Assembly (NCBI GenBank): GCA_963804825.1
Contig: CAWDRV010000004.1
Coordinates: forward strand, 271,278 to 335,277
Reading direction: 5' to 3'
From: an uncultured Planctomycetia bacterium
GTDB taxonomy: Bacteria; Planctomycetota; Planctomycetia; Pirellulales; Thermoguttaceae
Length of the DNA: 64,000 bases
Under the pieces are notes generated by a model. It saw only the letters and a program-made list of their open reading frames with translations, was not told the origin of the DNA and ran no database searches. Positions 22,268-32,554 of this stretch are shown here, one piece after another. How positions within the stretch are numbered: position 1 is the stretch's first letter; each line of letters starts with the position of its first letter. A program made the translations under genes and the position numbers.

Positions 22268-22299
22268 CAATAAAAACGCCCGGAGCGGTGGCAACCGTT

Positions 22300-23330
22300 C
22301 CGGGCAACCACAACCGGGCTTTCGCCCAATTGCGGGTTCGATGCTTGCATTATAGCGAAAGCCCCCAACAAAGGGAAGGCTTCGCTATGTGCAACGTCGT
22401 GAAACCGGAGCGCCAAAAGCAGGTGCTCCACATGCTGGTGGAGGGCAGTTCAATCCGATCCACGTCGCGCCTTACGGGAATCCATCGGGATACCATTGGT
22501 CGGCTGTTGGTCCGTTTCGGGCAAGGGTGCCGTCGTTTGCTCGATAACCGGTTGCAGGGATTGGCTTTACGGCACCTGGAATTGGACGAAATGTGGACTT
22601 TCGTGCTCAAAAAGGAGGGGCGATTGACCCTGGAAGAGCGCCAGGAGCGTTACGACATTGGGGATATTTACCTATGGACCGCCCTTGACCAGAAAACCAA
22701 GCTGATTCCCGCCTTTTTGGTTGGGAAACGGTCGGCAGACAACGCAAGGCGGTTTCTGCGGGACGTGGCCGGCCGGCTGCGGTTCCCCACGGCCCATGAC
22801 TCCGATCCGCACCACTACCAGCCGGGCGGGTATTCGCTGGTAGTGCAGATTTCCAGCGACGCCTTCCGGGCCTATCCCGAAGCGGTTGACTTGGCTTTCG
22901 GCCCCTATTGCAAATACGGCCAGATCATCAAGAACTATCGCAACGCCGACCAGCCGGGGCGCTATGCTCCCCCGGAGATGGTCGAGACTGAGCGCCGGAG
23001 GGTGTTCGCGTTGAGAGAAGACGAGGAGCGGACAATATGCACGTCCCACGTGGAGCGCCACAACTTGACCGTCCGCACCTTGTTGCGGCGGTTCACTCGC
23101 CTTGCTCTGGGATTCTCCAAAAAACTAGAGAACCTCGAGGCGGCGTGCGCGGCGTTTCTGGCGTACTACAACTTCGTTTGGCGAACCAGATACCCGGATG
23201 ACAGCGGGAAGGCAGGGCGGTATCGTCCGCCGGCCGCGGTCATGGCAGGCGTGGTTTCCAACCTCTGGACATTCACAGACCTGTTCAATCGTGTAATGGG
23301 GTAGAACCGGGCTGTTGTGGAGGCATACAT
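22300..23330 (+). mobile_element. IS1-family insertion sequence
   Basis: Contains an IS1-type transposase. Imperfect terminal inverted repeats around CCACAACCGGGCT (about 22307-22325) and CCGGGCTGTTGTGG (about 23300-23325). Confidence 0.55.
22386..23304 (+). CDS. IS1-family transposase (InsAB-like single ORF)
   Basis: N-terminal HTH IRSTSRLTGIHRDTIGRLL (InsA-like). The C-terminal HVERHNLTVRTLLRRFTRLALGFSKKLENLEAACAAFLAYYNF parallels IS1 InsB [41 protein letters not shown]. Confidence 0.7.
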
Positions 23331-23943: not shown

Positions 23944-24258
23944 TCATTTTATCCCGACCAGCGGCACGTGCAACCCACCATACCACCCAGAGGTGCAAAT
24001 TAGGCCACTGCCGCCCTCCCCGGTGGCTTGAAAGCGAACTTCAAAGGCAGTCGGATGATTCGCAATGGTCGAGCGCAGCCAACCGCGGCGTTCGACCATG
24101 CCGGCGGCCGTCAACAGAAACAGGGCATTGTCTTGAATGACGGTCAGCCGGTCGAGATCGAAGTCAGCCCACGTTTCGGGGATCGTCCGCAGCAACTCGG
24201 CGATTGCCCGCTTGAGAAGATCGGCTTCAGCGTCGGTTCGCGGGAGACGTTCTGCCAT
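23944..24258 (-). CDS. Hypothetical protein
   Basis: MAERLPRTDAEADLLKRAIAELLRTIPETWADFDLDRLTVIQDNALFLLTAAGMVERRGW... Protein-like composition. Confidence 0.35.
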   Translation of the reverse strand: MAERLPRTDAEADLLKRAIAELLRTIPETWADFDLDRLTVIQDNALFLLTAAGMVERRGWLRSTIANHPTAFEVRFQATGEGGSGLICTSGWYGGLHVPLVGIK

Positions 24259-24796
24259 GAATTCGCCCTTCGTTCTGCGGGTCGGCCCGCGCCGGCTGGG
24301 TTGTCCAGGTGGCCACCCGGCACAACCGTCCGGACGATTCTGCTCCACCCGTTTCTATCCCAGCATGCCCGCCATTTTACCCTCGGCGATGGCGTTTACC
24401 AGCCAGCGGGCGTAACGGCGGCTGCAGGGAGACGGACGGCAATCACTGGCCGCCCCGGGCAAAGGCACGACCTTCTCCATGGGTCACCGGCTCGCACCGT
24501 GGAAAATTTTCCGCGGGGCGGGAATAATTTCGCCCGTTCGAGCGTCTTATAGATAAGGCCGCCGTGCTCGGGAAAATTTCGTGAACTTCTGTAGCATCGG
24601 CGGCGTCTATACGATATAATAGCGATAGTGCGGCCCTCGGCGGGCTGCCAGTTTGAGAGAAAGAGCCATGACTTCGATACGGCTAAGTCACAAACAGCGA
24701 AGATGGATGGGTACATTCGCCGCCCAAGCGGCGAATACGCTCCCGTCCTATCCATTGCGCGTTTGACACCGGCCGTACCTATTCCGAAGAATACCG

Positions 24797-24832
24797 AAAG
24801 CCCGGTGTCATAACGACATCGGGCTTTTTTTA
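24797..24832 (+). terminator. Rho-independent terminator (AAAGCCCGGTG...CATCGGGC + TTTTTTTATT)
   Basis: GC stem agcccg/cgggct followed by a run of 7 T. Lies about 150 nt upstream of the first tRNA of the array. Confidence 0.6.
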
Positions 24833-24985
24833 TTGGGTCGGTAGCTGAGATGCGGGCACCGACCGAAGGTTGGTCGGCGGCGGCCTGAAAAGCCGCAGAC
24901 GCGGATTCGAGCACCGCCCGACCCACTGCGTGAAACGTGCGCGCGAACCCCTTGCTTCAACTGCGTGGAAGGTGCGCGCTGAGAT

Positions 24986-25059
24986 GGCCTGTTCGTCTAT
25001 CGGTTCGAGGACACCGGCCCTTCAAGCCGGGAAGACGGGTTCGACTCCCGTACGGGCCG
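24986..25059 (+). tRNA. tRNA-Glu(UUC), non-canonical (C33)
   Basis: Acceptor ggcctgt/acgggcc. The D-arm TTCGTCTATCGG resembles bacterial tRNA-Glu. Anticodon stem ccggc/gccgg with loop CCTTCAA. T-arm acggg-TTCGACT-cccgt. Confidence 0.7.
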
Positions 25060-25066
25060 CTGTGGG

Positions 25067-25160
25067 CAGAACGTAGCGAAGCCTGGTTATCGCGCGGGCA
25101 CCGATGCGCAGCATTGGTCCGGGGACCAGGAGACCGGCGGTTCAAATCCGCCCGTTCTGA
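25067..25160 (+). tRNA. tRNA-like, 94 nt, Pro-type D-loop, hairpin repeat where anticodon arm should be (probable pseudo-tRNA)
   Basis: Acceptor cagaacg/cgttctg, T-arm ggcgg-TTCAAAT-ccgcc, D-loop AAGCCTGGTTAT. The interior carries GGGCACCGATGCGCAGCATTGGTCC (array hairpin repeat). No standard anticodon arm. Confidence 0.35.
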
Positions 25161-25168
25161 CTGGATGA

Positions 25169-25241
25169 CGGGATGTAGGGTAGCGGCGAACCCGTGTGTT
25201 CTGGGAACACAAGATCGCAGGTTCGAGTCCTGCCATCCCGA
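25169..25241 (+). tRNA. tRNA-Pro(UGG), non-canonical (C33)
   Basis: Acceptor cgggatg/catcccg. Anticodon stem tgtgt/acaca with loop TCTGGGA. T-arm gcagg-TTCGAGT-cctgc. Confidence 0.65.
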
Positions 25242-25267
25242 CCTGACGGACAACGACGTTGGCACAT

Positions 25268-25339
25268 GGTAGTCGAGGGCCGGTTGCCCAAACCCGGCTG
25301 ATAACCGAGTGGCGCTGAGTTCGACTCTCAGGGCTACCA
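25268..25339 (+). tRNA. tRNA-Ile(GAU) (short D-loop; possible indel)
   Basis: Acceptor ggtagtc/ggctacc. Anticodon loop CTGATAA. T-arm ctgag-TTCGACT-ctcag. The D-arm looks truncated. Confidence 0.6.
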
Positions 25340-25405
25340 CTGGAAAGTGAGGAGCATGACCATGAAGCAAACCCGATGGAAACGCATACGCCCGGCCTGC
25401 ATTTC

Positions 25406-25477
25406 GGGGTCGTGGTGTAACGGCAGCACTCCGGACTTTTAATCCGGTAGGTGAAGGTTCGAGTCCTTTCGGCCCCA
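25406..25477 (+). tRNA. tRNA-Lys(UUU)
   Basis: Acceptor ggggtcg/cggcccc. Anticodon stem ccgga/tccgg with loop CTTTTAA. T-arm gaagg-TTCGAGT-ccttt. Confidence 0.8.
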
Positions 25478-25487
25478 CTCGCCGTGA

Positions 25488-25576
25488 CGGCGCGTAGCTC
25501 AATGGTCAGAGCGGGCCTCTTATAAGGGTCAGGACCACCTGCGGTGGTGCCCAGGGTTCGACTCCCTCCGCGCCCA
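25488..25576 (+). tRNA. tRNA-like with long variable hairpin, anticodon loop CTTATAA (UAU?); anticodon and acceptor ambiguous
   Basis: Canonical D-arm TAGCTCAATGGTCAGAGC. Anticodon stem ggcct/gggtc needs two G-U pairs. Variable hairpin ACCACCTGCGGTGGT. T-loop TTCGACT. The 5' acceptor pairing is imperfect. Confidence 0.4.
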
Positions 25577-25602
25577 CTGCTGCGCGTAACGAAGCAGACG
25601 AC

Positions 25603-25675
25603 GGGACCAAGGTGCTAGCGGCAGCACAGCGGATTCTTAATCCGCCAGGTGAGGGTTCAAGTCCCTCTGGTCCCA
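25603..25675 (+). tRNA. tRNA-Lys(CUU)
   Basis: Acceptor gggacca/tggtccc. D-arm gtgc/gcac. Anticodon stem gcgga/tccgc with loop TTCTTAA. T-arm gaggg-TTCAAGT-ccctc. Confidence 0.8.
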
Positions 25676-25690
25676 CTGATGTGAGCACTG

Positions 25691-25790
25691 GTCCGGGCAC
25701 CGACGCGCAGCGTTGGTCGTGGCGAGGATACCGCACCCGTAATGCGGCGACGAGGGTTCGAGTCCGGGCACCGACGCGAAGCGTTGGTCT
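25691..25790 (+). pseudogene. Pseudo-tRNA: Thr(CGU)-like anticodon arm (loop CCCGTAA, C33) flanked by two copies of the hairpin repeat, T-arm broken
   Basis: A direct repeat GTCCGGGCACCGACGCG[C/A]AGCGTTGGTC sits at both ends. Anticodon stem ccgca/tgcgg. The sequence around GGTTCGAGTCC cannot form a 5-bp T-stem. Confidence 0.35.
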
Positions 25791-25827
25791 GGTGCTCCTG
25801 TTGTTTGACAATTCGGCACACCACGAC

Positions 25828-25917
25828 GCGCCCATGGGGCACCGTCGCGAAGCGATGGTCGCGGCAGCCTGCTGCCTTGCCATGGCAGAAGTGCGGGTTC
25901 GACTCCCGCTGGGCGCT
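25828..25917 (+). tRNA. tRNA-Gly(GCC) with expanded D-region containing the hairpin repeat
   Basis: Acceptor gcgccca/tgggcgc. Anticodon stem ctgcc/ggcag with loop TTGCCAT. T-arm gcggg-TTCGACT-cccgc. 34 nt lie between the acceptor and the anticodon arm, including GGGGCACCGTCGCGAAGCGATGGTC. Confidence 0.5.
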
Positions 25918-25925
25918 TTTCAGCG

Positions 25926-26000
25926 CAGGACGTAGGAAAGCCTGGTATTCCGCGTGCCCCGGGCAGCACGAGATCGCGGGTTCAAATCCCGCCGTCCTGA
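25926..26000 (+). tRNA. tRNA-Pro(CGG)-like, 8-nt anticodon loop CCCGGGCA / C33
   Basis: Acceptor caggacg/cgtcctg. D-loop AAGCCTGGTAT. Anticodon stem cgtgc/gcacg. T-arm gcggg-TTCAAAT-cccgc. Confidence 0.5.
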
Positions 26001-26007
26001 CTTTGAT

Positions 26008-26082
26008 TGCGGTGGGGCCTGTGTTGGCACGGGCGGGCGCTTGTTAAGCGTCATGTCGCAGGTTCGATTCCTGCCACCGCAG
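26008..26082 (+). tRNA. tRNA-Asn(GUU)
   Basis: Acceptor tgcggtg/caccgca. Anticodon stem ggcgc/gcgtc with loop TTGTTAA. Variable loop ATGTC. T-arm gcagg-TTCGATT-cctgc. Confidence 0.7.
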
Positions 26083-26096
26083 CCTGTTGAGAGAAC

Positions 26097-26218
26097 GGAA
26101 GGGCAAGCCGGACCACCGCTTCGCGGCGGTGCCCGCGATGGCAGCCGCCGGGCACCATGCGAAGCATGGTCAGCGGCCGAGCGATGAGCCTTGAGGGTTC
26201 GACTCCCTCTCCTTCCGC
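26097..26218 (+). tRNA. Ser-type tRNA-like element, 122 nt with two hairpin insertions (probable pseudo/unusual tRNA)
   Basis: Acceptor ggaaggg/tccttcc (Ser-like), T-arm gaggg-TTCGACT-ccctc. The interior contains CACCGCTTCGCGGCGGTG (UUCG hairpin) and GGGCACCATGCGAAGCATGGTC (array repeat). Confidence 0.3.
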
Positions 26219-26223
26219 CTGCT

Positions 26224-26312
26224 GTGCCCTTGGCCGGCCGGCAGAGGTGCCAGCCTTCCAAGCTGGCGCGACCAACCTTCGGTCGGTGCCCGGTTCGACT
26301 CCCACAGGGCAC
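26224..26312 (+). tRNA. tRNA-Gly(UCC)-like with reverse-orientation hairpin repeat in variable region, defective T-arm (pseudo)
   Basis: Acceptor gtgccct/agggcac. Anticodon stem ccagc/gctgg with loop CTTCCAA, followed by GCGCGACCAACCTTCGGTCGGTGCCC. Relative to the paralog at 27439 it lacks about 18 nt, so the T-stem cannot pair. Confidence 0.35.
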
Positions 26313-26327
26313 TCTCAGCGATGACGA

Positions 26328-26398
26328 TCGGGGATCAGCTAGTGGCAGGCTTCCTGGCTTTGAACCAGGCAACGGAGGTTCAACCCCTCCTCCCCGAG
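26328..26398 (+). tRNA. tRNA-Gln(UUG)
   Basis: Acceptor tcgggga/tccccga (U1-A72 as in bacterial Gln). Anticodon stem cctgg/ccagg with loop CTTTGAA. T-arm ggagg-TTCAACC-cctcc. Confidence 0.75.
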
Positions 26399-26435
26399 CT
26401 TGCAGCCGGCGAGCCGTGTCTCGTCACGCAAACGA

Positions 26436-26506
26436 TGCGGAGTCATCTAACGGTAGGATGAGACTCTCTGAAGGTCTTCATGTTGGTTCAACTCCAGCCT
26501 CCGCAG
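26436..26506 (+). tRNA. tRNA-Gln(CUG)
   Basis: Acceptor tgcggag/ctccgca. D-stem catc/gatg. Anticodon stem agact/ggtct with loop CTCTGAA. T-arm gttgg-TTCAACT-ccagc. Confidence 0.7.
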
Positions 26507-26515
26507 CTTGATAAC

Positions 26516-26601
26516 GGAAGCCATCCGGCCGGATGAGGAGCCTGTCTTGAAAACAGGTGGCGGCCCGACGCCGCTTGTGGGTTCGAGTCCCACGGCTTCC
26601 G
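26516..26601 (+). tRNA. tRNA-Ser(UGA)
   Basis: Acceptor ggaagcc/ggcttcc. Anticodon stem cctgt/acagg with loop CTTGAAA. Long variable arm TGGCGGCCCGACGCCGCT. T-arm gtggg-TTCGAGT-cccac. Confidence 0.75.
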
Positions 26602-26606
26602 CCTTT

Positions 26607-26677
26607 GGGGTCATGGTCCAACAGGACGACGCCAGCTCCGCACGCTGGAGATCCGGGTGCGACTCCCGGTGACTCCA
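26607..26677 (+). tRNA. tRNA-Ala(CGC), non-canonical (C33, T-loop TGCGACT), G3-U70 present
   Basis: Acceptor ggggtca/tgactcc gives G3-U70 and discriminator A. Anticodon stem ccagc/gctgg with loop TCCGCAC. T-arm ccggg-TGCGACT-cccgg. Confidence 0.65.
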
Positions 26678-26689
26678 CTGTAGAAACAT

Positions 26690-26761
26690 AGCCCCGTGGT
26701 CCAACGGCAACGACGCTTGGTCCACACCCAGGAAACGATGGTTCGACTCCATCCGGGGCTA
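26690..26761 (+). tRNA. tRNA-Val(CAC), non-canonical (C33)
   Basis: Acceptor agccccg/cggggct. D-arm GTCCAACGGCAACGAC. Anticodon stem cttgg/ccagg with loop TCCACAC. T-arm gatgg-TTCGACT-ccatc. Confidence 0.65.
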
Positions 26762-26765
26762 CTGC

Positions 26766-26839
26766 GGCTCGGTAGGCAACCGGCAGACCACCTTGGCTTA
26801 GAACCAGGGATGCTGTGGGTTCGACTCCCACCTGAGCCA
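26766..26839 (+). tRNA. tRNA with anticodon UAG (Leu) on a class-I body (short variable loop), non-canonical
   Basis: Acceptor ggctcgg/ctgagcc, discriminator A. Anticodon stem cttgg/ccagg with loop CTTAGAA. Variable loop GATGC. T-arm gtggg-TTCGACT-cccac. Confidence 0.55.
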
Positions 26840-26853
26840 CTGTGAACGACCCT

Positions 26854-26928
26854 GCCCTCGTGGAGCAGCCTGGAGTGCTCGCCTGCCTGTCACGCAGGAG
26901 ATCGCGGGTCCAAATCCCGTCGAGGGCG
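26854..26928 (+). tRNA. tRNA-Asp(GUC) (T-loop TCCAAAT, C54)
   Basis: Acceptor gccctcg/cgagggc, discriminator G. D-stem gagc/gctc. Anticodon stem cctgc/gcagg with loop CTGTCAC. T-arm gcggg-TCCAAAT-cccgt. Confidence 0.7.
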
Positions 26929-26942
26929 CTTTCAAGTATGAC

Positions 26943-27017
26943 GGCGCGGTACGCAAATCGGCAAAGCGGTCAAGCTCAAACCTTGGTGATCTGCGGGTTC
27001 GACTCCCGCCTGTGCCA
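26943..27017 (+). tRNA. tRNA with anticodon CAA (Leu) on a class-I body, non-canonical
   Basis: Acceptor ggcgcgg/ctgtgcc. D-arm CGCAAATCGGCAAAGCG. Anticodon stem tcaag/cttgg with loop CTCAAAC. Short variable loop. T-arm gcggg-TTCGACT-cccgc. Confidence 0.5.
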
Positions 27018-27028
27018 CTGGAAACCAT

Positions 27029-27112
27029 GCGTCAACTGGGCATCGGCGAGCCCAACTGCCCGTAAAACAGCCAGCCCGAAAGGCTATGCAGGTTCGACTC
27101 CTGCCCGGCGCA
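27029..27112 (+). tRNA. Class-II-like tRNA element, anticodon arm degenerate (loop CCCGTAAAA), acceptor mismatched (probable pseudo/chimera)
   Basis: D-arm GGGCATCGGCGAGCCC. Variable hairpin AGCCCGAAAGGCT. T-arm gcagg-TTCGACT-cctgc. The 5' gcgtcaa does not fully pair with the 3' ccggcgc. Confidence 0.3.
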
Positions 27113-27122
27113 CTGACAACAT

Positions 27123-27195
27123 GGCCCGTTCGTCTATCGGCCAAGGACACCGGCCCCTCACGCCGGAAAGGCGGGTTCAATTCCCGCACGGGCTG
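27123..27195 (+). tRNA. tRNA-Glu(CUC), non-canonical (C33)
   Basis: Paralog of 24986. Acceptor ggcccgt/acgggct. Anticodon stem ccggc/gccgg with loop CCCTCAC. T-arm gcggg-TTCAATT-cccgc. Confidence 0.65.
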
Positions 27196-27202
27196 CTGAC
27201 AT

Positions 27203-27284
27203 GACCAAGTGGCGCAACTGGTAGACGCGCGACGCTCAGAACGTCGTGCCGCAAGGCATGGGAGTTCGAATCTCCCCTTGGTCA
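27203..27284 (+). tRNA. tRNA-Leu(CAG), class II
   Basis: Acceptor gaccaag/cttggtc, discriminator A. D-arm GGCGCAACTGGTAGACGCG. Anticodon stem cgacg/cgtcg with loop CTCAGAA. Variable hairpin TGCCGCAAGGCAT. T-arm gggag-TTCGAAT-ctccc. Confidence 0.75.
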
Positions 27285-27295
27285 CTGAGGAATTG

Positions 27296-27362
27296 CAGGC
27301 GCGGCAGGTGCCCAACTGGCTCCCATAAGGCCGGTGCGCCCGGCTCGATACCGGGGCCTGCA
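27296..27362 (+). tRNA. Degenerate tRNA-like element, anticodon loop CCCATAA (CAU, C33)
   Basis: Acceptor tgcaggc/gcctgca. T-arm cccgg-CTCGATA-ccggg. The interior is only 38 nt, with a 4-bp anticodon stem ggct/ggcc. Confidence 0.3.
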
Positions 27363-27364
27363 AC

Positions 27365-27429
27365 TGCGGGTGGGCCAGTGCTCAGCCGGGCCCCATAAGC
27401 CTGGACCGCCGGGCGCAACACCCGGACCC
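27365..27429 (+). tRNA. Degenerate tRNA-like element, anticodon loop CCCATAA (CAU, C33), 1-72 mismatch
   Basis: T-arm ccggg-CGCAACA-cccgg. Acceptor tgcgggt/acccgcc has a T1xC72 mismatch. Anticodon stem gggc/gcct. Confidence 0.25.
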
Positions 27430-27438
27430 GCCACTTGC

Positions 27439-27530
27439 GACCGGGTACGCAAATTGGCATAGCGGCGCGACCAACCTTCGGTCGGTGCCCGAGAGCCTCG
27501 TGCCTGTGGGTTCGACTCCCACCTCGGTCA
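27439..27530 (+). tRNA. Class-II-like tRNA with reverse-orientation hairpin repeat occupying the anticodon-arm position (loop AACCTTC)
   Basis: Acceptor gaccggg/ctcggtc. D-arm CGCAAATTGGCATAGCG. The anticodon-position segment CGACC-AACCTTC-GGTCG is part of GCGCGACCAACCTTCGGTCGGTGCCC. Variable arm GAGAGCCTCGTGCC. T-arm gtggg-TTCGACT-cccac. Confidence 0.4.
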
Positions 27531-27544
27531 CTGACAAGGAAAAC

Positions 27545-27617
27545 GATCCCGTGGTCCAACGGCGAAGACGCCTGGGTGACAACCAGGAAAGCGATGGTTC
27601 GACTCCATCCGGGATCA
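27545..27617 (+). tRNA. tRNA-Val(GAC)
   Basis: Acceptor gatcccg/cgggatc. D-arm GTCCAACGGCGAAGAC. Anticodon stem cctgg/ccagg with loop GTGACAA. T-arm gatgg-TTCGACT-ccatc. Confidence 0.7.
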
Positions 27618-27711
27618 TGTTGGAAAAACGGTCTGTAGGTGTTTCGGCAGCACACCTCCTCGGTAAAGAGGAAGACCCGGTTCATCTCCGGGACGGACCT
27701 CTTGATGATGC

Positions 27712-27782
27712 GGGCCGCTGGTCCAACGGGAAGACGCTTGGTTTGCACCCAGGCAATCGGGGTTCGATTCCCCGGCGGTCCA
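27712..27782 (+). tRNA. tRNA-Ala(UGC)
   Basis: Acceptor gggccgc/gcggtcc with G3-U70, discriminator A. Anticodon stem cttgg/ccagg with loop TTTGCAC. T-arm cgggg-TTCGATT-ccccg. Confidence 0.8.
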
Positions 27783-27791
27783 CTGAAATAC

Positions 27792-27879
27792 GGAAGGTAG
27801 CCGGATACCGGGTTGCCGGGCCGCCCCGCTAAGGCGGTTCTCCCCTGTGGAGATGAGGGTTCAACTCCCTTGCCTTCCG
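27792..27879 (+). tRNA. tRNA-Ser(GCU), class II, non-canonical (C33)
   Basis: Acceptor ggaaggt/gccttcc, discriminator G. Anticodon stem ccgcc/ggcgg with loop CCGCTAA. Variable hairpin TCTCC-CCTGT-GGAGA. T-arm gaggg-TTCAACT-ccctt. Confidence 0.65.
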
Positions 27880-27898
27880 CTTGGTGTGTCGGGTTGAC

Positions 27899-27969
27899 GC
27901 CCCGATAGTGAAACGGAAATCATGCCTCGCTTCTAACGAGGCGATCCAGGTTCAACTCCTGGTCGGGGT
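27899..27969 (+). tRNA. tRNA-Arg(UCU)
   Basis: Acceptor gccccga/tcggggt. Anticodon stem cctcg/cgagg with loop CTTCTAA. T-arm ccagg-TTCAACT-cctgg. Confidence 0.75.
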
Positions 27970-27990
27970 GCTGGCGGAGACAGTTATATA

Positions 27991-28066
27991 TGGTGTCCGT
28001 GGTGTAGCGGTTCCTGCACGCCTGGCTGTGAACCAGGAGGTAGGGGTTCGATTCCCCTCGGATACC
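27991..28066 (+). tRNA. tRNA-His(GUG) with encoded G-1 and C73
   Basis: G at -1, acceptor gtgtccg/cggatac, discriminator C. Anticodon stem cctgg/ccagg with loop CTGTGAA. T-arm agggg-TTCGATT-cccct. Confidence 0.8.
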
Positions 28067-28096
28067 CCTGGGGAGAATTGTGGGAAGGAGAACGTT

Positions 28097-28693
28097 ATGG
28101 TCACCAAGGTACTCCAGCGGCCGACGCTGGTGCTGAACCGCAACTGGCAGCCGGTGAACGTCGCCACCGTGACGCGGGCACTGGTGCTGCTGTGGAACGA
28201 GTCTGCGCGCGTCGTGGACCCGGCCGACTACCAGCTCTACACCTGGGCCGACTGGGCCAAGCTGCGGCCGGGCAACGGCGAGGACTGCATCCAGGCGGTG
28301 AGGTTCAAGCTGCGGGTGCCGGAAGTGGTCGCACTGAGCGGCTACGATCGGCTGCCGACGGCCCACGTGACCTTCAGCCGCCGGAACATTTTCAAGCGGG
28401 ACCACTACACCTGCCAGTACTGCGGCGCCCAGCCGGGCAGCGATGAACTGACGCTGGACCACGTCCTGCCGCGTTCCCAGGGTGGCGTGTCGGGTTGGGG
28501 GAACTGCGTGCTGGCCTGTGTGGCCTGCAACAAGCGGAAGGCCGATCGGACACCGGAGCAAGCACGGATGCACCTGCGCCGTAAGCCGGTCCGGCCGACG
28601 TGGAAGCCGCTCTATGCGGATCACGAGGTGCGGATCGAGAGCTGGTCGAAGTTCGTCAGCGAAGCGTACTGGAACGTAAGGCTTGAGACCTGA
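28097..28693 (+). CDS. HNH endonuclease
   Basis: ATG at 28097 with RBS GGAAGGAGAA. HNH motif CQYCGAQPGSDELTLDHVLPRSQGG...NCVLACVACNKRK. 198 aa. Embedded in the tRNA array; the larger listed ORF 27881..28693 overlaps tRNAs and is spurious. Confidence 0.8.
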   Translation: MVTKVLQRPTLVLNRNWQPVNVATVTRALVLLWNESARVVDPADYQLYTWADWAKLRPGNGEDCIQAVRFKLRVPEVVALSGYDRLPTAHVTFSRRNIFKRDHYTCQYCGAQPGSDELTLDHVLPRSQGGVSGWGNCVLACVACNKRKADRTPEQARMHLRRKPVRPTWKPLYADHEVRIESWSKFVSEAYWNVRLET

Positions 28694-28736
28694 GACCTGA
28701 GACCTGAGACCTGAGGCTTGAGGCTTGAGTGGTGAG
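28681..28736. repeat. Tandem heptad repeats (GCTTGAG/ACCTGAG x8)
   Basis: gcttgag acctgag acctgag acctgag acctgag gcttgag gcttgag tggtgag overlaps the HNH stop codon. An inverted complement array lies at 29117-29196. Confidence 0.7.
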
Positions 28737-28740
28737 GAAG

Positions 28741-29121
28741 TTAGGCACTTCGGCGAAGAGACCGCACTAGACCTGCCAGGACCTTTGCGGTCTCGTCCGC
28801 CTGTTGTGCGACTTTCTGGGCGGCATCGTCCGGCACGTATCCTAGGCGATGAGCGACCGTAAGCTGGTACTGGACCTCACGCGATGAACCAAACGCCATG
28901 TCGAGAAAACGAATGTAGTCGGCCTGCGAGTGCCTGGCGCAGCCCTCGACGATATTCGAGGCAATGGAGATTGCGGCACGACGCAATTGGATGGTCAGTC
29001 CGAACTGCTCCTGCCTAGGAAATGTCTTGGTAATTGAATAGATCGACAGAACAAGATTGTCGGCTAACTCGAACGCACGGAGTTTTCGATGGTCTCGCAT
29101 CGCTGTATTGTGCCACTTCAA
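28741..29121 (-). CDS. Four-helix-bundle protein (23S rRNA intervening-sequence protein family, TIGR02436-like)
   Basis: MRDHRKLRAFELADNLVLSIYSITKTFPRQEQFGLTIQLRRAAISIASNIVEGCARHSQADYIRFLDMAFGSSREVQYQL matches the conserved family pattern (FGLTSQLRRAA.SI..NIAEG). The start may be the Met at 29100 rather than 29121. Confidence 0.7.
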   Translation of the reverse strand: MKWHNTAMRDHRKLRAFELADNLVLSIYSITKTFPRQEQFGLTIQLRRAAISIASNIVEGCARHSQADYIRFLDMAFGSSREVQYQLTVAHRLGYVPDDAAQKVAQQADETAKVLAGLVRSLRRSA

Positions 29122-29196
29122 GCCTCACAACTCAAGCCTCAGGCCCCAGGCCTCAAGCCTAAGGCCCCAGGCCTCAAGCCTAAGGCCTCAGGCCTA
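29117..29196. repeat. Tandem heptad/21-bp repeats (CTCAAGC/CTAAGGC/CCCAGGC), inverted complement of the 28681-28736 array
   Basis: caagcctcacaactcaagcctcaggccccaggcctcaagcctaaggccccaggcctcaagcctaaggcctcaggcct. Together with the left array it can form a long imperfect stem around the 4HB gene. Confidence 0.65.
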
Positions 29197-29200
29197 TTAC

Positions 29201-29270
29201 AGGAGTGTCCTCCTGGGAGAGGAAGCGGCCTCCAAAGCCGCTGCACGGGGTTCGAATCCTCGCGCTCCTG
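29201..29270 (+). tRNA. tRNA-Trp(CCA)
   Basis: Acceptor aggagtg/cgctcct, discriminator G. Anticodon stem gcggc/gccgc with loop CTCCAAA. T-arm cgggg-TTCGAAT-cctcg. Confidence 0.75.
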
Positions 29271-29273
29271 CTT

Positions 29274-29345
29274 GCCGACGTGGCCGAAAGGCAAGGCGGC
29301 GGTCCTGTAAACCGCATGATGCTGGTTCGAATCCAGTCGTCGGCT
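29274..29345 (+). tRNA. tRNA-Thr(UGU), non-canonical (C33)
   Basis: Acceptor gccgacg/cgtcggc. D-arm GCCGAAAGGCAAGGC. Anticodon stem gcggt/accgc with loop CCTGTAA. T-arm gctgg-TTCGAAT-ccagt. Confidence 0.6.
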
Positions 29346-29356
29346 TTGGTACGTTT

Positions 29357-29428
29357 GTCCCGATGGTGTAGCGGATCGCACGGGGCTCTCCTAAGGCCCT
29401 GGCCCTGGTTCGACTCCAGGTCGGGACA
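29357..29428 (+). tRNA. tRNA-Arg(CCU)
   Basis: Acceptor gtcccga/tcgggac. D-arm GTGTAGCGGATCGCAC. Anticodon stem gggct/ggccc with loop CTCCTAA. T-arm cctgg-TTCGACT-ccagg. Confidence 0.75.
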
Positions 29429-29434
29429 CTATTC

Positions 29435-29506
29435 GTCTCGATGGTGTAGCGGATCGCATAGGACCCTCCGAAGGTCCAGGTCCAGGTTCGACTCCTGGTC
29501 GAGACA
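29435..29506 (+). tRNA. tRNA-Arg(CCG)
   Basis: Acceptor gtctcga/tcgagac. Anticodon stem ggacc/ggtcc with loop CTCCGAA. T-arm ccagg-TTCGACT-cctgg. Confidence 0.75.
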
Positions 29507-29509
29507 TTT

Positions 29510-29582
29510 GCCCTGCGAGTGTGCCGGATTAGCACGGCAGACTACGAATCTGCAAGACGGGGTTCGATTCCTCGGCGGGGCG
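29510..29582 (+). tRNA. tRNA-Arg(ACG)
   Basis: Acceptor gccctgc/gcggggc, discriminator G. Anticodon stem gcaga/tctgc with loop CTACGAA. T-arm cgggg-TTCGATT-cctcg. Confidence 0.75.
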
Positions 29583-29593
29583 CTGAAACGAAT

Positions 29594-29666
29594 GTCCTCG
29601 GAGTGTGCCGGATAAGCACGCGACCGTGCGAAGGTCGTAGACCAGGTCCAATTCCTGGCGAGGACG
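29594..29666 (+). tRNA. Arg-type tRNA body with anticodon arm CGACC-GTGCGAA-GGTCG (GCG; stem identical to the hairpin-repeat core), T-loop TCCAATT
   Basis: Paralog of 29510 (same D-arm GTGTGCCGGATAAGCAC). Acceptor gtcctcg/cgaggac. Purine at position 32, anticodon GCG. Confidence 0.45.
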
Positions 29667-29690
29667 CTTGACAATTCGGCGCTGGAGCCA
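29667..29690. repeat. Direct repeat DR1 (CTTGACAATTCGGCGCTGGAGCCA): promoter-like TTGACA plus a copy of the first 13 nt of tRNA-Cys
   Basis: 21 of 24 positions identical to 30734-30757, which is the true 5' end of tRNA-Cys. The two repeats flank a 1.04-kb lower-GC insert. Confidence 0.6.
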
Positions 29691-29859
29691 CAGCATAGCA
29701 TTTGGGCGGCGGTCGCCCATCGCAGATGTAAGCGGGCCAACTGGCGCACCCCACCACAATTCGGTGCGACAGCGCATCGTGTCGGGCCATAGCCCGCCCG
29801 AGAATGCGCTAATCTCACTGTGGATAACAAGGGATTCCCAGTCAACGCGGAGAAATGCA

Positions 29860-30738
29860 ATGGCCATCAATTACCAACGAGCGAGTGAACTGCTACTAGA
29901 GACCCAACAAGCAATGCAGTGCGACGAAAGCACGCGTCTGTGCGAAGCGGTGGGCAAGTTGCTGGATGCGCGTCTATGTGGGGCTGATCCTTGGGACTGG
30001 CGCTACAACACCACGCATTGGGCATTGGATGTGGTCAATGTCTGTAAGGAGATCGGGTACAGCGTTGCATGGATGCGAGCGTTGGCTCGCTACTGCTCGG
30101 AGTCGGAGGAGCAGGATCGGCAATCCGTCGAGGGCCTCGTGTCGTATTATGCGGACAACGCTGCAACGAGGATCAGTTCGTGCCGTGACAAACTCGCGCT
30201 CCTTGCATGGTCGTATTATTGCCCATTCAACCCTGACAAGAAGGACGACGTCTTGAGTTTTGAGCAGGTTCACGCCCGATTGACCACCCCGCTTAGGTTC
30301 GGCCTCCACTTCAACGGTCACAATGAGTTCCTCGTCGAACTGAACAAGCTCCTGGGATCAGGCTTTGAAAGGGCTATTGCCTACCGACACAAAAAGGTAC
30401 ATCGCATGGAACCGCGCGTTATGATGCGTAAGCCCGAGGTCCCCGACCAACGATGTTACATGTTTGCGGTAACGACAGAAAAGGACGTTCGCGGATTCGA
30501 CGATAAGCTCAAGAAGATGTACCCAGATGATGGGTTTCGAGCAGAAGTCCGACAGGGGTGCTTCCTCGATGGCGTGCTTTTTGACCGGCGAGCGCCCGAG
30601 GAATTGCTCTGGCACTTCGAGGATTTCGACGGATTCACTTATCCTTGTTGGAAGAGTCTATGTGATGCGACCGCGGGCTCGTGCGAGATACTGTTACGTC
30701 GTGAACCAATGCTTTCAAAGGCTGGCCAAGGCACTTGA
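29860..30738 (+). CDS. Hypothetical protein (cargo of insertion within tRNA array; lower GC)
   Basis: ATG at 29860 with RBS GGAGAAA. 292 aa, no recognisable motifs. About 50% GC against about 65% for the flanks. Confidence 0.5.
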   Translation: MAINYQRASELLLETQQAMQCDESTRLCEAVGKLLDARLCGADPWDWRYNTTHWALDVVNVCKEIGYSVAWMRALARYCSESEEQDRQSVEGLVSYYADNAATRISSCRDKLALLAWSYYCPFNPDKKDDVLSFEQVHARLTTPLRFGLHFNGHNEFLVELNKLLGSGFERAIAYRHKKVHRMEPRVMMRKPEVPDQRCYMFAVTTEKDVRGFDDKLKKMYPDDGFRAEVRQGCFLDGVLFDRRAPEELLWHFEDFDGFTYPCWKSLCDATAGSCEILLRREPMLSKAGQGT

Positions 30739-30757
30739 CAACGTGGCGCTGGAGCCA
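30734..30757. repeat. Direct repeat DR2 (CTTGACAACGTGGCGCTGGAGCCA), overlaps 5' end of tRNA-Cys
   Basis: Matches DR1 at 29667-29690. Confidence 0.6.
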
Positions 30758-30816
30758 GACGGCACGGCGGCTGCCTGCAAAGCAGCTTCAAGTGGGTTCG
30801 ACTCCCACCGGCGCCT
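30745..30816 (+). tRNA. tRNA-Cys(GCA)
   Basis: Acceptor ggcgctg/cggcgcc, discriminator U. D-arm GCCAGACGGCACGGC. Anticodon stem gctgc/gcagc with loop CTGCAAA. T-arm gtggg-TTCGACT-cccac. Confidence 0.8.
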
Positions 30817-30927
30817 TTTTGGAAGCAATGATACGGCCGGGCCAACGGCGCAGCGCCGCCCTGTCCTCCAGCGAGGCGGTCGGCGACGTGCGTTCCGTAC
30901 ATGGGTTCTGACCGATGGTCGTGTCAA

Positions 30928-31000
30928 GCGAGGTTAGCTCAGTGGATAGAGCACCAGACCAATAATCTGGCTGTCGCGGGTTCGACTCCCGTACCAACAC
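30928..31000 (+). pseudogene. Pseudo-tRNA (canonical D-arm TAGCTCAGTGGATAGAGC, loop CCAATAA, 3' acceptor does not pair with 5' end)
   Basis: T-arm gcggg-TTCGACT-cccgt is followed by accaaca, but the 5' acceptor is gcgaggt. Anticodon stem ccaga/tctgg with A34 and C33. Confidence 0.35.
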
Positions 31001-31447
31001 CGCAGGCTAAACCCCTGCTCCAAACGGCCCGCGACCAACGCGGGGCGTTGGTGCCCGGCGGGCCAACGTGTGATCGGCCACCGGCGGCCGAGCGACCGAC
31101 GGCGCCGAGGACTCTGGGCATACTGCCTGTAAGGCAGCGCCCGGAGGAATCGACGCCCAAGGGAGCACACGGTTGTCCGGTGGCAGCACGGCCGAGTGCC
31201 ATGTAGTGCGTGGATACCGCTTCCGCCGGCCTCCGGCAAGCGGCAACGGATGCCTGGCGACTCGCCCCAGGGCTTTGCCCCTTCGGCGACCAGCCCGGCG
31301 GAAACTGCCGCACCGCCGCAGGCTATGCGGATGCTCAAACGACACTCCGCAGTTGTCCGTGTGATCGCCGCTGGCTCCGCCGCCCGACGGCTTTATGAAA
31401 CGCAGACAAGAGCGGCCCACGAAAGGCCGCAGGAAGGAAGGTGAAGG

Positions 31448-32554
31448 ATGTTCGTCATCAAGACCGTCAAGATTCGCAGCTACGAAACGGGCCTGCACTT
31501 CCGTGACGGCGAGTTCAAGGGCCTGCTCGGCGCCGGCCGGCACTGGTTCTTCGACCCGCTGGGCAAGGTCAAGGTGGAGGTCGTCTCGCAGCGCAGCCCG
31601 TGGCTGGCCCACGAGAAGCTCGACGTGATCGTCAAGTCGGGGGCGCTGAAGGACCGCGCCGTGGTGCTGGACCTGAAGGACTACCAGCGGGCCGCTGTGT
31701 GGGTGGACGGCCGGTTCAGCCACATCCTGCCGCCGGGCCTGTACGCCTACTGGACCACCTTCCGCGAGGTCGCCGTCGAGGTGATCGACGCCCGCCGTGT
31801 CCGCTTCGAGCACAAGGACCTCCAGGTGATCGTCCGCTCGGCGCTGGCCGATCGGCTGCTGGATGCCTTTGCCGTCGAGCAGGGCCACGTCGGCGTGCTG
31901 TTCGAGGACGGCCGCTACGTCGAGACCCTGCCGCCGGGCAAGTACGCCTTCTGGAAGAACATGGCCAAGGTCATGCTCGTGCCGATGGACCTGCGCGAGA
32001 CGATGCTGGACATCGGCGGCCAGGAGATCATGACCGCCGACAAGGTCACGCTCCGCCTGAACGCGGTGGCCACTTACCGGGTGGCCGACGCCCACAAGGC
32101 GCTGAGCGCGGCCGACGACGCCCGCCAGGCCCTGTACCGCGAGGCCCAGTTGGCCCTGCGGGCGGTGATCGGCGGCCGCGAACTCGACCAGTTCCTGGCC
32201 GACAAGGACGCCGTGGCCAAGGAACTGGAGGTCATCGTCCGGCAGCGGGTGGCTGCGCTGGGTCTGGAGGTCATCTCGGTGGGCATCCGCGACGTGATCC
32301 TGCCGGGCGACATGAAGGACCTGATGAACAAGGTCACGGAGGCCAAGAAGGCGGCCGAGGCCAACCTGATCGTTCGCCGCGAGGAAACCGCGGCCATGCG
32401 CAGCCAGGCCAACACGGCCAAGGTGCTGGAGGGCAACCCGACGCTGATGCGGCTCCGGGAACTGGAAGTCCTGGAGCGGGTCGCCACCAGCGGCAAGCTG
32501 AACGTCGTGCTGGGCGAGAAGGGCCTGGCCGAGCGGGTCGTGAACCTGCTCTGA
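31448..32554 (+). CDS. SPFH/band-7 domain protein
   Basis: 368 aa. A hairpin terminator follows at 32562-32600. Confidence 0.75.
   Translation: MFVIKTVKIRSYETGLHFRDGEFKGLLGAGRHWFFDPLGKVKVEVVSQRSPWLAHEKLDVIVKSGALKDRAVVLDLKDYQRAAVWVDGRFSHILPPGLYAYWTTFREVAVEVIDARRVRFEHKDLQVIVRSALADRLLDAFAVEQGHVGVLFEDGRYVETLPPGKYAFWKNMAKVMLVPMDLRETMLDIGGQEIMTADKVTLRLNAVATYRVADAHKALSAADDARQALYREAQLALRAVIGGRELDQFLADKDAVAKELEVIVRQRVAALGLEVISVGIRDVILPGDMKDLMNKVTEAKKAAEANLIVRREETAAMRSQANTAKVLEGNPTLMRLRELEVLERVATSGKLNVVLGEKGLAERVVNLL

Follow-up and report, generated by a model that had tools for sequence, protein, structure and literature searches.

In this study, a family of very small hairpin repeats was analysed in a 64,000-nt stretch of DNA from an uncultured Planctomycetia bacterium (contig CAWDRV010000004.1; the whole stretch is called the window), where the repeats are found in and directly behind a long array of tRNA genes. 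The repeats probably represent a very small non-coding palindromic DNA element, of the kind of repetitive extragenic palindromic sequences (REPs) or small dispersed repeats (SDRs), which belongs to planctomycetes of the Pirellulales/Thermoguttaceae type. We describe the family and its structure, distribution and turnover, the boundaries of its copies, the replacement of target bases and the polarity of insertion. The comparison set consisted of 80 related arrays (L001-L080), which were genome loci fetched through the HNH endonuclease encoded within the array.

The 24-mer consensus of the repeat was matched five times in the 64-kb window with up to three mismatches allowed, against 0.00 matches expected. 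A structure-aware regular expression detected 11 hairpin copies, every one of them between 24854 and 31056 and none elsewhere in the 64 kb. A covariance model was trained on 28 diverse copies and applied to the whole window with the filters off, and it recovered the same 11 copies at 18-46 bits (E ≤ 0.01). The only other match above 13 bits was the palindromic copy at 31033 read on its other strand, and the next match at a separate locus had 13 bits and was regarded as noise. Six copies are on the plus strand and five on the minus strand. The repeat family had been proposed in an earlier note on this DNA, including a stem with a G·T wobble and CGAAG or CGCAG loops; both the family, on which consensus, regular expression and covariance model agree, and this description stand. 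The copies listed there belong to the family, but two minus-strand copies (25533 and 26111) had been missed, and the positions 25754, 26141 and 26255 were off by 8-14 nt. Copies had also been placed in intergenic DNA, which holds for the copy at 31033 only, whereas those listed at 25694, 25754 and 26141 are inside the broken genes of tRNA-Thr(CGU) and tRNA-Ser(CGA), which ARAGORN cannot call. The anticodon arm of tRNA-Arg(GCG) at 29594, which had been taken for a stem of the same family, is an ordinary 5-bp/7-nt arm without a model match; the likeness of the repeat to this stem is a coincidence, and an anticodon-arm-like origin was not borne out.

The unit was defined from 100 regular-expression copies and 107 model hits in the window and the 80 loci as C-GGGC-ACC-(G)NN...c(GNA)g...N'N'(T)-GGT-C-G. 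It forms a hairpin of 7-8 bp and typically 22-26 nt, with a conserved G·T wobble in the stem, a tip of the GCGNAGC mini-hairpin type and, at the foot, a bulge of three nucleotides (GGC). This bulge is left if the C and G that flank the unit pair with each other and the initial G of GGGC pairs with the final C, as they are able to do. C precedes GGGC in 86% of the copies, and G follows GGTC in 73%. Paired cells make up 93% of the model-fitted alignment. The fourth stem pair is the G·T wobble in 79 of 92 distinct copies. The fifth is paired throughout, as AU in 37 distinct copies, CG in 24 and UA in 2, and the covariation inside the stem is genuine. In 79 of 100 copies the loop reads c(GCA)g, c(GAA)g or c(GTA)g, and it does so only on the GGGCACC strand. 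As DNA, the GCGNAGC mini-hairpin shows exceptional stability and resists nucleases, and its stability as RNA is much lower (PMC13037366). Fold energies of the top and bottom strands were -6.0 vs -4.1 kcal/mol as DNA and -11.0 vs -7.6 kcal/mol as RNA, respectively. The top strand folds better than its complement because of the G·T wobble, and the reverse transcript of the hairpin has an A·C mismatch and folds worse. Since the energies of these short GC-rich hairpins were indistinguishable from those of shuffles (z about -1), the structural case rests on the covariation.

The copies are described here with core coordinates (GGGC...GGTC) and together with their host tRNA genes, all of which are on the plus strand. 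In tRNA-Phe(GAA) (24835-24926), the copy at 24854-24875 (plus; 22-nt core GGGCACCGACCGAAGGTTGGTC between C and G; 33.6 bits) overwrites the D loop, where the G18/G19 segment is replaced. In tRNA-Pro(GGG) (25067-25161; C at anticodon-loop position 33), the copy at 25096-25119 (plus; 24 nt, interior GAT/ATT; 38.7 bits) supplants CTGGT, the 5' strand of the anticodon stem. The shortest copy, at 25533-25552 (minus; 20 nt, GGGCACCACCGCAGGTGGTC on the minus strand; 18.3 bits, E 0.01), is accommodated as an additional arm by the variable loop of tRNA-Ile(UAU) (25488-25577; 44.5 bits), which may still fold with this arm. All three sites are empty in the orthologues of L002, L005, L006 and L007. Two copies are present in tRNA-Thr(CGU) (25685-25797), a gene without a call by ARAGORN or Rfam that was recognised from its intact orthologues: the copy at 25695-25718 (plus; 45.7 bits) replaces GTCYA in the D region, as aligned to L002, L007, L010, L012 and L060, and the copy at 25766-25789 (plus; 41.3 bits) supplants CTC(C) of the T-stem 3' strand, at a site which is also filled in L009. 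The D arm of tRNA-Gly(GCC) (25828-25917; called by ARAGORN only in truncated form, 25846-25916) is disrupted by the copy at 25837-25860 (plus; interior GTC/GAT; 38.5 bits), with ATGTA of the D region replaced.

Two copies are likewise present in the uncalled tRNA-Ser(CGA) (26097-26217), one at 26111-26134 (minus; 39.4 bits), which supplants the D loop (AATTG) as aligned to L002, L005 and L006, and one at 26150-26171 (plus; 22 nt, without the G·T pair; 32.4 bits), which supplants the anticodon loop with loss of the anticodon. In tRNA-Gly(UCC) (26224-26314), the T-stem 5' strand is interrupted at its junction with the variable region by the copy at 26270-26291 (minus; 34.6 bits), the head of which points toward the T loop. 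The copy at 27469-27490 (minus; 33.6 bits) supplants ACCT (AGGT on the tRNA strand) and thereby destroys the anticodon-stem 5' strand of tRNA-Leu(GAG) (27439-27531), which ARAGORN miscalled as Val(aac). The copy at 31033-31056 (minus; 37.4 bits) is outside the tRNAs, 38 nt beyond the last tRNA-like unit; it has a perfect stem with A-T for G·T and the loop CCC, and is the tip of a longer hairpin (GGCCCGC...GCGGGCC). Its orthologue in L001 retains the G·T pair. Taken over the window, 8 of ~41 array units owe their damage to the hairpin, and a stem strand, the anticodon or the D-loop G18/G19 is lost in at least 7 of the 8 host tRNAs. The anticodon is also replaced in a Thr tRNA of L009. Because essential nucleotides are replaced, excision would be unable to restore these tRNAs. 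A tRNA intron of the group I or bulge-helix-bulge type was rejected on account of the replaced essential nucleotides, the two orientations and the presence of copies in D, anticodon, variable and T regions.

In syntenic arrays (L002, L005, L006, L007, L009 and others), tRNAs at sites that are filled by a hairpin in the window are canonical and intact, and vice versa. A systematic search of the related arrays detected both filled and empty alleles at 87 sites, for which the boundaries were determined by trimming the shared prefixes and suffixes of each pair. The filled allele has a median of 26 nt in place of a median of 5 nt of target, with 4-7 nt lost in 68 of the 87 pairs, and no target duplication was found in any of them. 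The left boundary is sharp, at C or GGGC, in 70 of the 87 pairs, and the right boundary is ragged (G, GG or GGC). Microhomology between the element ends and the target is frequent at the junctions (TGGTC, CGGGCAC~CGGGAGCAC, GGCA, AGGTT and GCC). The site of the tRNA-Leu(GAG) copy in L001, which has ~92% identical flanks, shows an intact anticodon stem (GCG-AGGT-CGAGAG) where the window has 22 nt, and L002, L003 and L006 also lack the copy, which is identical over 24/24 nt (flanking C and G included) to the window copies at 24853-24876 and 26269-26292. Because the copy is absent from L001 despite such similar flanks, it is a recent gain, and its source was another copy in this genome. With respect to the tRNA strand, 55 of 100 copies are plus and 45 are minus. 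Hairpin copies were found inside the loops of other copies (L030, L040, L077), and genomes differ in the sequence variant that fills a given site (Gln CUG loop, Pro CGG, Leu UAG and Leu UAA), which points to either hot spots or conversion between copies.

The 107 covariance-model hits come from 81 sources, namely the window and the 80 loci, and the family is present in 37 of the 80 related arrays. In these HNH-anchored loci, 88 of 100 copies are in arrays, which span 303 kb of 1313 kb, and the copy density per base is ~24-fold higher in arrays than in the 1 Mb of flanks. Nearly all of the 12 non-array copies (all but about two) are within ~300 nt of an array or on tRNA remnants. An unbiased scan of metagenome contigs with the pattern GGGCACCGNCGCGNAGCGNTGGTC yielded at least 156 copies on at least 120 contigs. 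The array specificity considered in the earlier note could not be upheld: among the matches listed, only 42 of the 156 metagenome copies are near a tRNA or T-loop motif and 114 are far from any tRNA, and at least one contig of the latter kind comes from the same clade. This contig is L132, in which the gene adjoining an intergenic copy encodes a product 60-96% identical to Thermoguttaceae/Pirellulales proteins, so non-tRNA copies occur in the window's own clade. An array-specific tRNA-linked repeat was thus ruled out by the pattern scan together with this clade check of one non-tRNA contig. The repeat is genome-wide, as the note had allowed for, but it is not equally frequent outside tRNAs, given its enrichment in arrays. 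The other proposals of the note fared differently. A miniature insertion element agrees with the differing occupancy of orthologues, both orientations, the nested copies and the one recent gain, and its disabling of host tRNAs was supported by the overwritten anticodon, stem strands or D-loop G18/G19. Target duplications, for which the note had suggested aligning tRNAs with and without the repeat, are missing, the target bases being replaced, and a simply diverged anticodon arm in every case is contradicted by the canonical empty orthologues.

Among the matches listed, 79 of 93 assessable non-tRNA copies in metagenome contigs are outside open reading frames (ORFs) with coding-like GC content at third codon positions (GC3), as judged by crude gene calling, and the remaining 14 are within ORFs, in frame. 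Among the same matches, 10 of 109 non-tRNA copies are nested in another copy, with three levels in L108, and some copies form inverted doublets (L139 11959/12003, L121 215/330) or tandem runs, most being single. A second dispersed palindromic repeat, tggggtcgac[..]ggcgagcccca, repeatedly holds the GGGCACC element in its loop (L081 4551, L083 660, L097 4171, L104 1016, L113 2127, L119 7420 and L123 1141). On at least ten contigs (L086, L109, L115, L128, L182, L185, L188, L190, L195 and L198), the hairpin is at one fixed point of an IS91-family (Y2/HUH) transposase gene, in the region encoding the N-terminal zinc-binding part, with the interior variant GTC/GAT in L109, L182, L190 and L198 and different variants in the other six. 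The IS91-family reading frame appears broken downstream of the hairpin. The hairpin was also found in an IS3-family transposase gene on several contigs among the matches listed. Since there is one fixed site per insertion sequence (IS) gene, these are passenger copies, and the IS91 and IS3 transposases were rejected as mobilisers. A phage origin was rejected as well, the pattern being on three viral contigs only.

The position of the copies within tRNAs shows a polarity. The variable region and T-stem 5' strand hold 1 plus and 23 minus copies, the T-stem 3' strand 9 plus and 0 minus copies, and the anticodon arm 23 plus and 6 minus copies. The T arm is nearly palindromic, and on either side of it the GGGC head is 2-4 nt 3' of TCGA on the carrying strand, which fits DNA being recognised on either strand. 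There is no fixed target word: C is found at -2 in 60%, and TCGA-N-CC is a hot spot only. TCGA was rejected as a general target word, its enrichment arising solely from the T arm and one composite repeat. A hairpin target is seen upstream of the array, where the leader hairpin TTCGCCGC-CCAA-GCGGCGAA (24716-24735, plus) is empty in the window and its CCAA loop is replaced by an element copy in L007 (L007 6515). Outer stems of at least 6 bp enclose 14 array copies, compared with 4.9 expected and a shuffle maximum of 11, and 20 non-tRNA metagenome copies among the matches listed, compared with 4.9 expected.

Based on these results, we propose that the element acts at the DNA level and not as a part of the tRNA. 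New copies arise in either orientation, and a typical event brings in a 26-nt unit and removes ~5 nt of the target without duplicating it. Insertion favours hairpin-capable DNA, such as tRNA arms, the leader hairpin, other palindromic repeats and other element copies, and at the T arm the GGGC head is set 2-4 nt 3' of TCGA, whichever strand carries the element. The long accessory tRNA array would serve both as a hot spot and as a tolerant sink, in which insertion inactivates individual tRNA genes. The single-stranded top-strand hairpin would be the recognised form, and our best guess is that a host enzyme cuts and joins in trans, acting on the folded top strand. Whether this amounts to a mechanism not yet described, in which a 26-nt hairpin cassette with a sharp C-GGGC start replaces ~5 target bases with target-set polarity and a preference for hairpin tips and arms, we consider conceivable but doubtful. 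Several points weigh against the proposal. No known transposition chemistry yields a -5/+26 replacement in both orientations, and the 6:5 orientations within one 6-kb stretch disfavour a simple insertion into the lagging-strand template only. Quasipalindrome correction, and not selection, could be the source of the covariation. Clearly complementary flanks are present in about a quarter of the copies only, which makes hairpin-loop targeting a tendency and not a rule. Some of the empty alleles among the 87 pairs may be paralogues and not orthologues, the metagenome scan was limited to the 24-nt class, and the copy counts are those of loci and contigs. In addition, no enzyme for the movement of the element was identified in the window, the related loci or the metagenome contigs.

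Concerning candidate enzymes, no recurrent gene except two IS types, and no recurrent Y1 gene, was found near 116 non-tRNA copies among the matches listed. No REP-associated tyrosine transposase (RAYT) flanked by GGGCACC hairpins was found in the contigs and loci examined, and in the window no Y1 gene is beside the array. A Y1_Tnp (RAYT/IS200-like) gene was met by chance downstream of a conserved VWA gene in Thermoguttaceae contigs (L201 4734-5195 and L204 4730-5362; relatives of L132). Hairpins of another family (GCCCGTTTACGGGC, GGCCGTAAACGGCC and CCCCGTGAAACGGGG) flank this gene on both sides without any match to the GGGCACC model, and together they probably form a second, classical REP-RAYT system in the clade. 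A RAYT association of the GGGCACC element could thus not be shown through this gene.

The main rival explanation, which we judge unlikely, requires no dedicated enzyme. The hairpin tip would spread by replication slippage, template switching or short-patch gene conversion between hairpin-forming sequences: the nascent strand would stall at one hairpin, copy the tip of another and rejoin a few bases downstream, and quasipalindrome correction would maintain the arms. This agrees with the replacement of target bases without duplication, the frequent microhomology at the element-target junctions, the ragged 3' and sharp 5' boundaries, the excess of hairpin-forming targets and nested copies, and the donor of the newest copy (27469) being within the same array. 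However, hundreds of copies begin with an identical sharp C-GGGC and their donor flanks are not co-transferred, correction should erase the G·T wobble, which is conserved, and microhomology of 1-2 nt is weak for so reproducible a process; conservation of the family across families of an order also argues against it. A connection of the hairpin with the array HNH, as a cleavage or homing target or as a repair scar, is quite improbable. The HNH genes are presented as conserved companions of long tRNA arrays in PMC8421152, the 88 of 100 copies that are in HNH-anchored arrays are accompanied by others mostly close by, and in L031, where the array is decayed, the HNH gene still has a copy on either side, at -87 and +95 nt. 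Yet this association is partly circular, because all 80 genome loci were fetched through the HNH, and the element positions in the window have no fixed relation to the gene, the nearest copies being 600 nt and 2.3 kb off. The HNH-hairpin link is unsupported, because no copy is present in ~28 arrays that comprise at least 10 tRNAs beside the same HNH (72-84% identical) and because most metagenome copies (the 114 of 156 away from tRNAs, among the matches listed) are on contigs without an HNH gene.

A selected functional module, either a signal for RNA processing, stability or protein binding in a polycistronic tRNA precursor or a DNA site for priming, for topology or free of single-stranded-DNA-binding protein, is very improbable in our judgement. 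The strongly conserved geometry, compensatory changes and conserved wobble of the hairpin would be in line with it, as would the filling of the same tRNA positions in distant genomes; G·T pairs in REPs have often been taken as a sign of RNA function (PMC3733652), and mini-hairpins mark primase/polymerase entry sites in phage single-stranded DNA (PMC13037366). Against this, the orientations are near-equal with respect to transcription although the reverse transcript folds worse, the host RNA is destroyed by overwritten anticodons and stems, occupancy is patchy even among close relatives, copies are present within transposase genes and ORFs, and no Rfam family matches. The hairpins could also be read as diverged normal tRNA arms or protein-spliced tRNA introns, since ARAGORN can fit a number of the copies into elongated variable arms or unusual anticodon loops and part of the 3' arm resembles D-loop sequence (GTTGGT). 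The hairpin-free orthologues are canonical, however, essential nucleotides are replaced (the anticodons of Ser(CGA) and the L009 Thr tRNA, and stem strands of Leu(GAG), Pro(GGG), Thr and Gly), and the same 24-26-nt unit is present in leaders, spacers, transposase genes and non-tRNA DNA. This reading has next to no probability left and must be regarded as already refuted by the filled/empty alignments. A very small DNA element remains the preferred reading.

The host array (24835-30995) contains ~41 same-strand tRNA units, comprising 35 tRNAs called by ARAGORN and ~6 broken or uncalled ones, and Rfam adds a few. It has the features of an L-array, namely at least 20 dense same-strand tRNA genes with an associated HNH. 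Three genes interrupt the array, namely the HNH endonuclease gene (28097-28693), a four-helix-bundle gene (28741-29100) and an ORF with a weak HEPN-like match (29860-30738). The HNH protein has thousands of relatives with ~75-97% identity, named Planctomycetota, Pirellulales or Thermoguttaceae. The HNH is embedded in 20-40 tRNA genes almost throughout the 80 genome loci, and 540 relatives support a long same-strand tRNA array with HNH as the type of the host locus. A long tRNA operon with a conserved HNH, the 'L-array', is already described in PMC8421152, and a 'degenerate tRNA gene cluster' in planctomycete genomes is noted in PMC4807772. Since the arrangement matches these descriptions, the host locus is already known. 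None of the array tRNAs (all units, 24835-30816) has an encoded CCA, and a CTG is conserved after the discriminator base (e.g. CCACTG, TCACTG), which suggests a shared 3'-processing context.

At position 33 of the anticodon loop, particular isoacceptors of the array have C in place of the near-universal U, a replacement conserved from genome to genome: Leu(GAG) 41/42, Glu(CUC) 32/41, Pro(GGG) 13/14, Thr(CGU) 22/33 and Val(CAC) 8/11, with 239 of 1540 ARAGORN calls overall (window and L001-L080). Examples in the window are at 24986-25060, 27123-27196, 27792-27880 and 29274-29345, among others. The tRNA-Pro(CGG) at 25926-26001 has an 8-nt anticodon loop (CCCGGGCA), and its L002 orthologue has the canonical TTCGGGA; this site is filled by a hairpin in L007, L010, L012, L037, L060, L140 and L149. 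A conserved leader precedes the array (24560-24790 and 24790-24834), with a terminator-like hairpin and a T run directly ahead of the first tRNA. L002 and L005-L007 have kept this leader, and so has L031 despite the decay of its array. An IS1-like transposase ORF (22288-23304, plus) is ~1.5 kb upstream of the array. A gene for a four-helix-bundle protein like 23S-rRNA-intervening-sequence/bAvd proteins (28741-29100, minus) is within the array, bracketed by inverted blocks of heptamer tandem repeats, (GAGACCT/GAGGCTT)n, at 28679-28737 and 29123-29195. Similar inverted-repeat blocks without the gene are present in the L006 array, and the gene family also adjoins the VWA gene in L201/L204. A 292-aa ORF (29860-30738, plus) has a weak match to HEPN_Cthe2314 (E 1.5e-5, below the Pfam cut-off). 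The segment holding it (about 29690-30722) is absent from L001, L002 and L005 and is, by this comparison, a lineage-specific insertion. The closest relative, L001 (CAWDSU010000008.1; HNH 97% and DNA ~92% identical), was deposited as a 'Methanoregulaceae archaeon' metagenome-assembled genome, and the contig is almost certainly mis-binned planctomycete DNA. The label of L046, Dechloromonas, is likewise suspect.

The results have several implications. The decay of accessory tRNA clusters in planctomycetes has long been noted, and a 26-nt palindrome that overwrites D loops, anticodons and T stems can now be named as a concrete agent of it. For annotation, 'odd' tRNAs of 90-97 nt or with unknown anticodon in such arrays should be taken with caution, as they are usually hairpin-disrupted genes. 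Very small mobile-looking repeats of the REP/SDR kind are extended to another phylum, with a new foot motif and with a footprint (about -5/+26 nt, no duplication, target-set polarity) which is precise enough to constrain the mechanism. The tRNA array is moreover a natural trap in which orthologous filled and empty sites align easily, so insertion events can be dated and counted. If the cassette mechanism were true, the element would be among the smallest units with transposon-like behaviour, and a new hairpin-recognising nuclease/ligase or recombinase would be implied in planctomycetes, for which the array HNH is one conceivable candidate.

The element was compared with known systems. A miniature inverted-repeat transposable element, which has terminal inverted repeats and a target-site duplication and is usually >50 bp, was rejected, as the unit is 24-26 nt, target bases are lost and none of the 87 pairs has a duplication. 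A single-stranded DNA element of the IS200/IS605 type (like palindrome-associated transposable elements), which enters precisely on the 3' side of a set tetra- or pentanucleotide, loses no target bases and has a replication-related strand bias, was rejected on the ~5 nt of target lost, the absence of a fixed target word and the 6:5 orientation within 6 kb. An intrinsic terminator was rejected with no T run after the copies, and a known RNA family with only tRNA-clan and chance Rfam matches in 24000-32000. Rickettsia palindromic elements (RPEs) are 100-150 bp long, enter functional genes including RNA genes, are carried in the product and typically preserve the function of the host gene. Our element is likewise a palindromic repeat inserting into functional genes including RNA genes, but it is 5-fold smaller and destroys tRNA stems and anticodons.

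REPs are short palindromes with an unpaired conserved GTAG/CGTC-type tag, G·T pairs and complementary stem variants, and are mostly extragenic; RPEs are mentioned in the same source (PMC3733652). The element shares with REPs the imperfect palindrome of the 20-40-nt class with a short loop, the G·T pairs, the complementary stem variants, the many dispersed copies, the unpaired conserved tag at one foot of the stem, the predominantly extragenic location with a minority in frame inside ORFs, and the arrangement in single units, occasional inverted doublets and clusters. Unlike in REPs, the tag is a GGC bulge within C-GGGC without GTAG/CGTC or the complement, tRNA genes are a hot spot and insertion replaces ~5 nt of target; inverted doublets as in REPs and REPINs are not typical, most copies being singletons. 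The mini-hairpin DNA d(GCGNAGC) is the exact tip of 79% of the copies, on one defined strand, but is a structural module and not a mobile element (PMC13037366); here it caps a longer conserved stem with its own foot sequence. The host locus is of the L-array and degenerate-cluster type (PMC8421152, PMC4807772): it has ~40 tRNA genes on one strand, none with an encoded CCA, many of its tRNAs are degraded, and an HNH is embedded among them. Degraded tRNAs are reported in both papers, and a palindromic element as the agent was not found in the passages and supplement search results for them. The portions of the literature examined likewise contained no description of the -5/+26 footprint, the target-set polarity or the tRNA-array hot spot.

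The SDRs of cyanobacteria are reportedly mobile without coding capacity, nest in each other, have precise insertion points and vary in occupancy between relatives. The families SDR1-8 are said to be sequence families of Nostocaceae, of which SDR5 reportedly inserts into the HIP1 octamer. SDRs have a length of 21-27 nt and are reported in Nostocaceae only (PMC4390886, PMC5861425). They are not known to have a GNA mini-hairpin tip or a tRNA-array hot spot. The planctomycete element is set apart from these SDR descriptions by its phylum, its unrelated sequence and a consensus without HIP1. It is nevertheless a non-coding, mobile-looking unit of the 21-27-nt class with precise insertion points, nesting and an occupancy that differs between relatives, and in size, nesting and turnover it appears to resemble SDRs most among the known systems.

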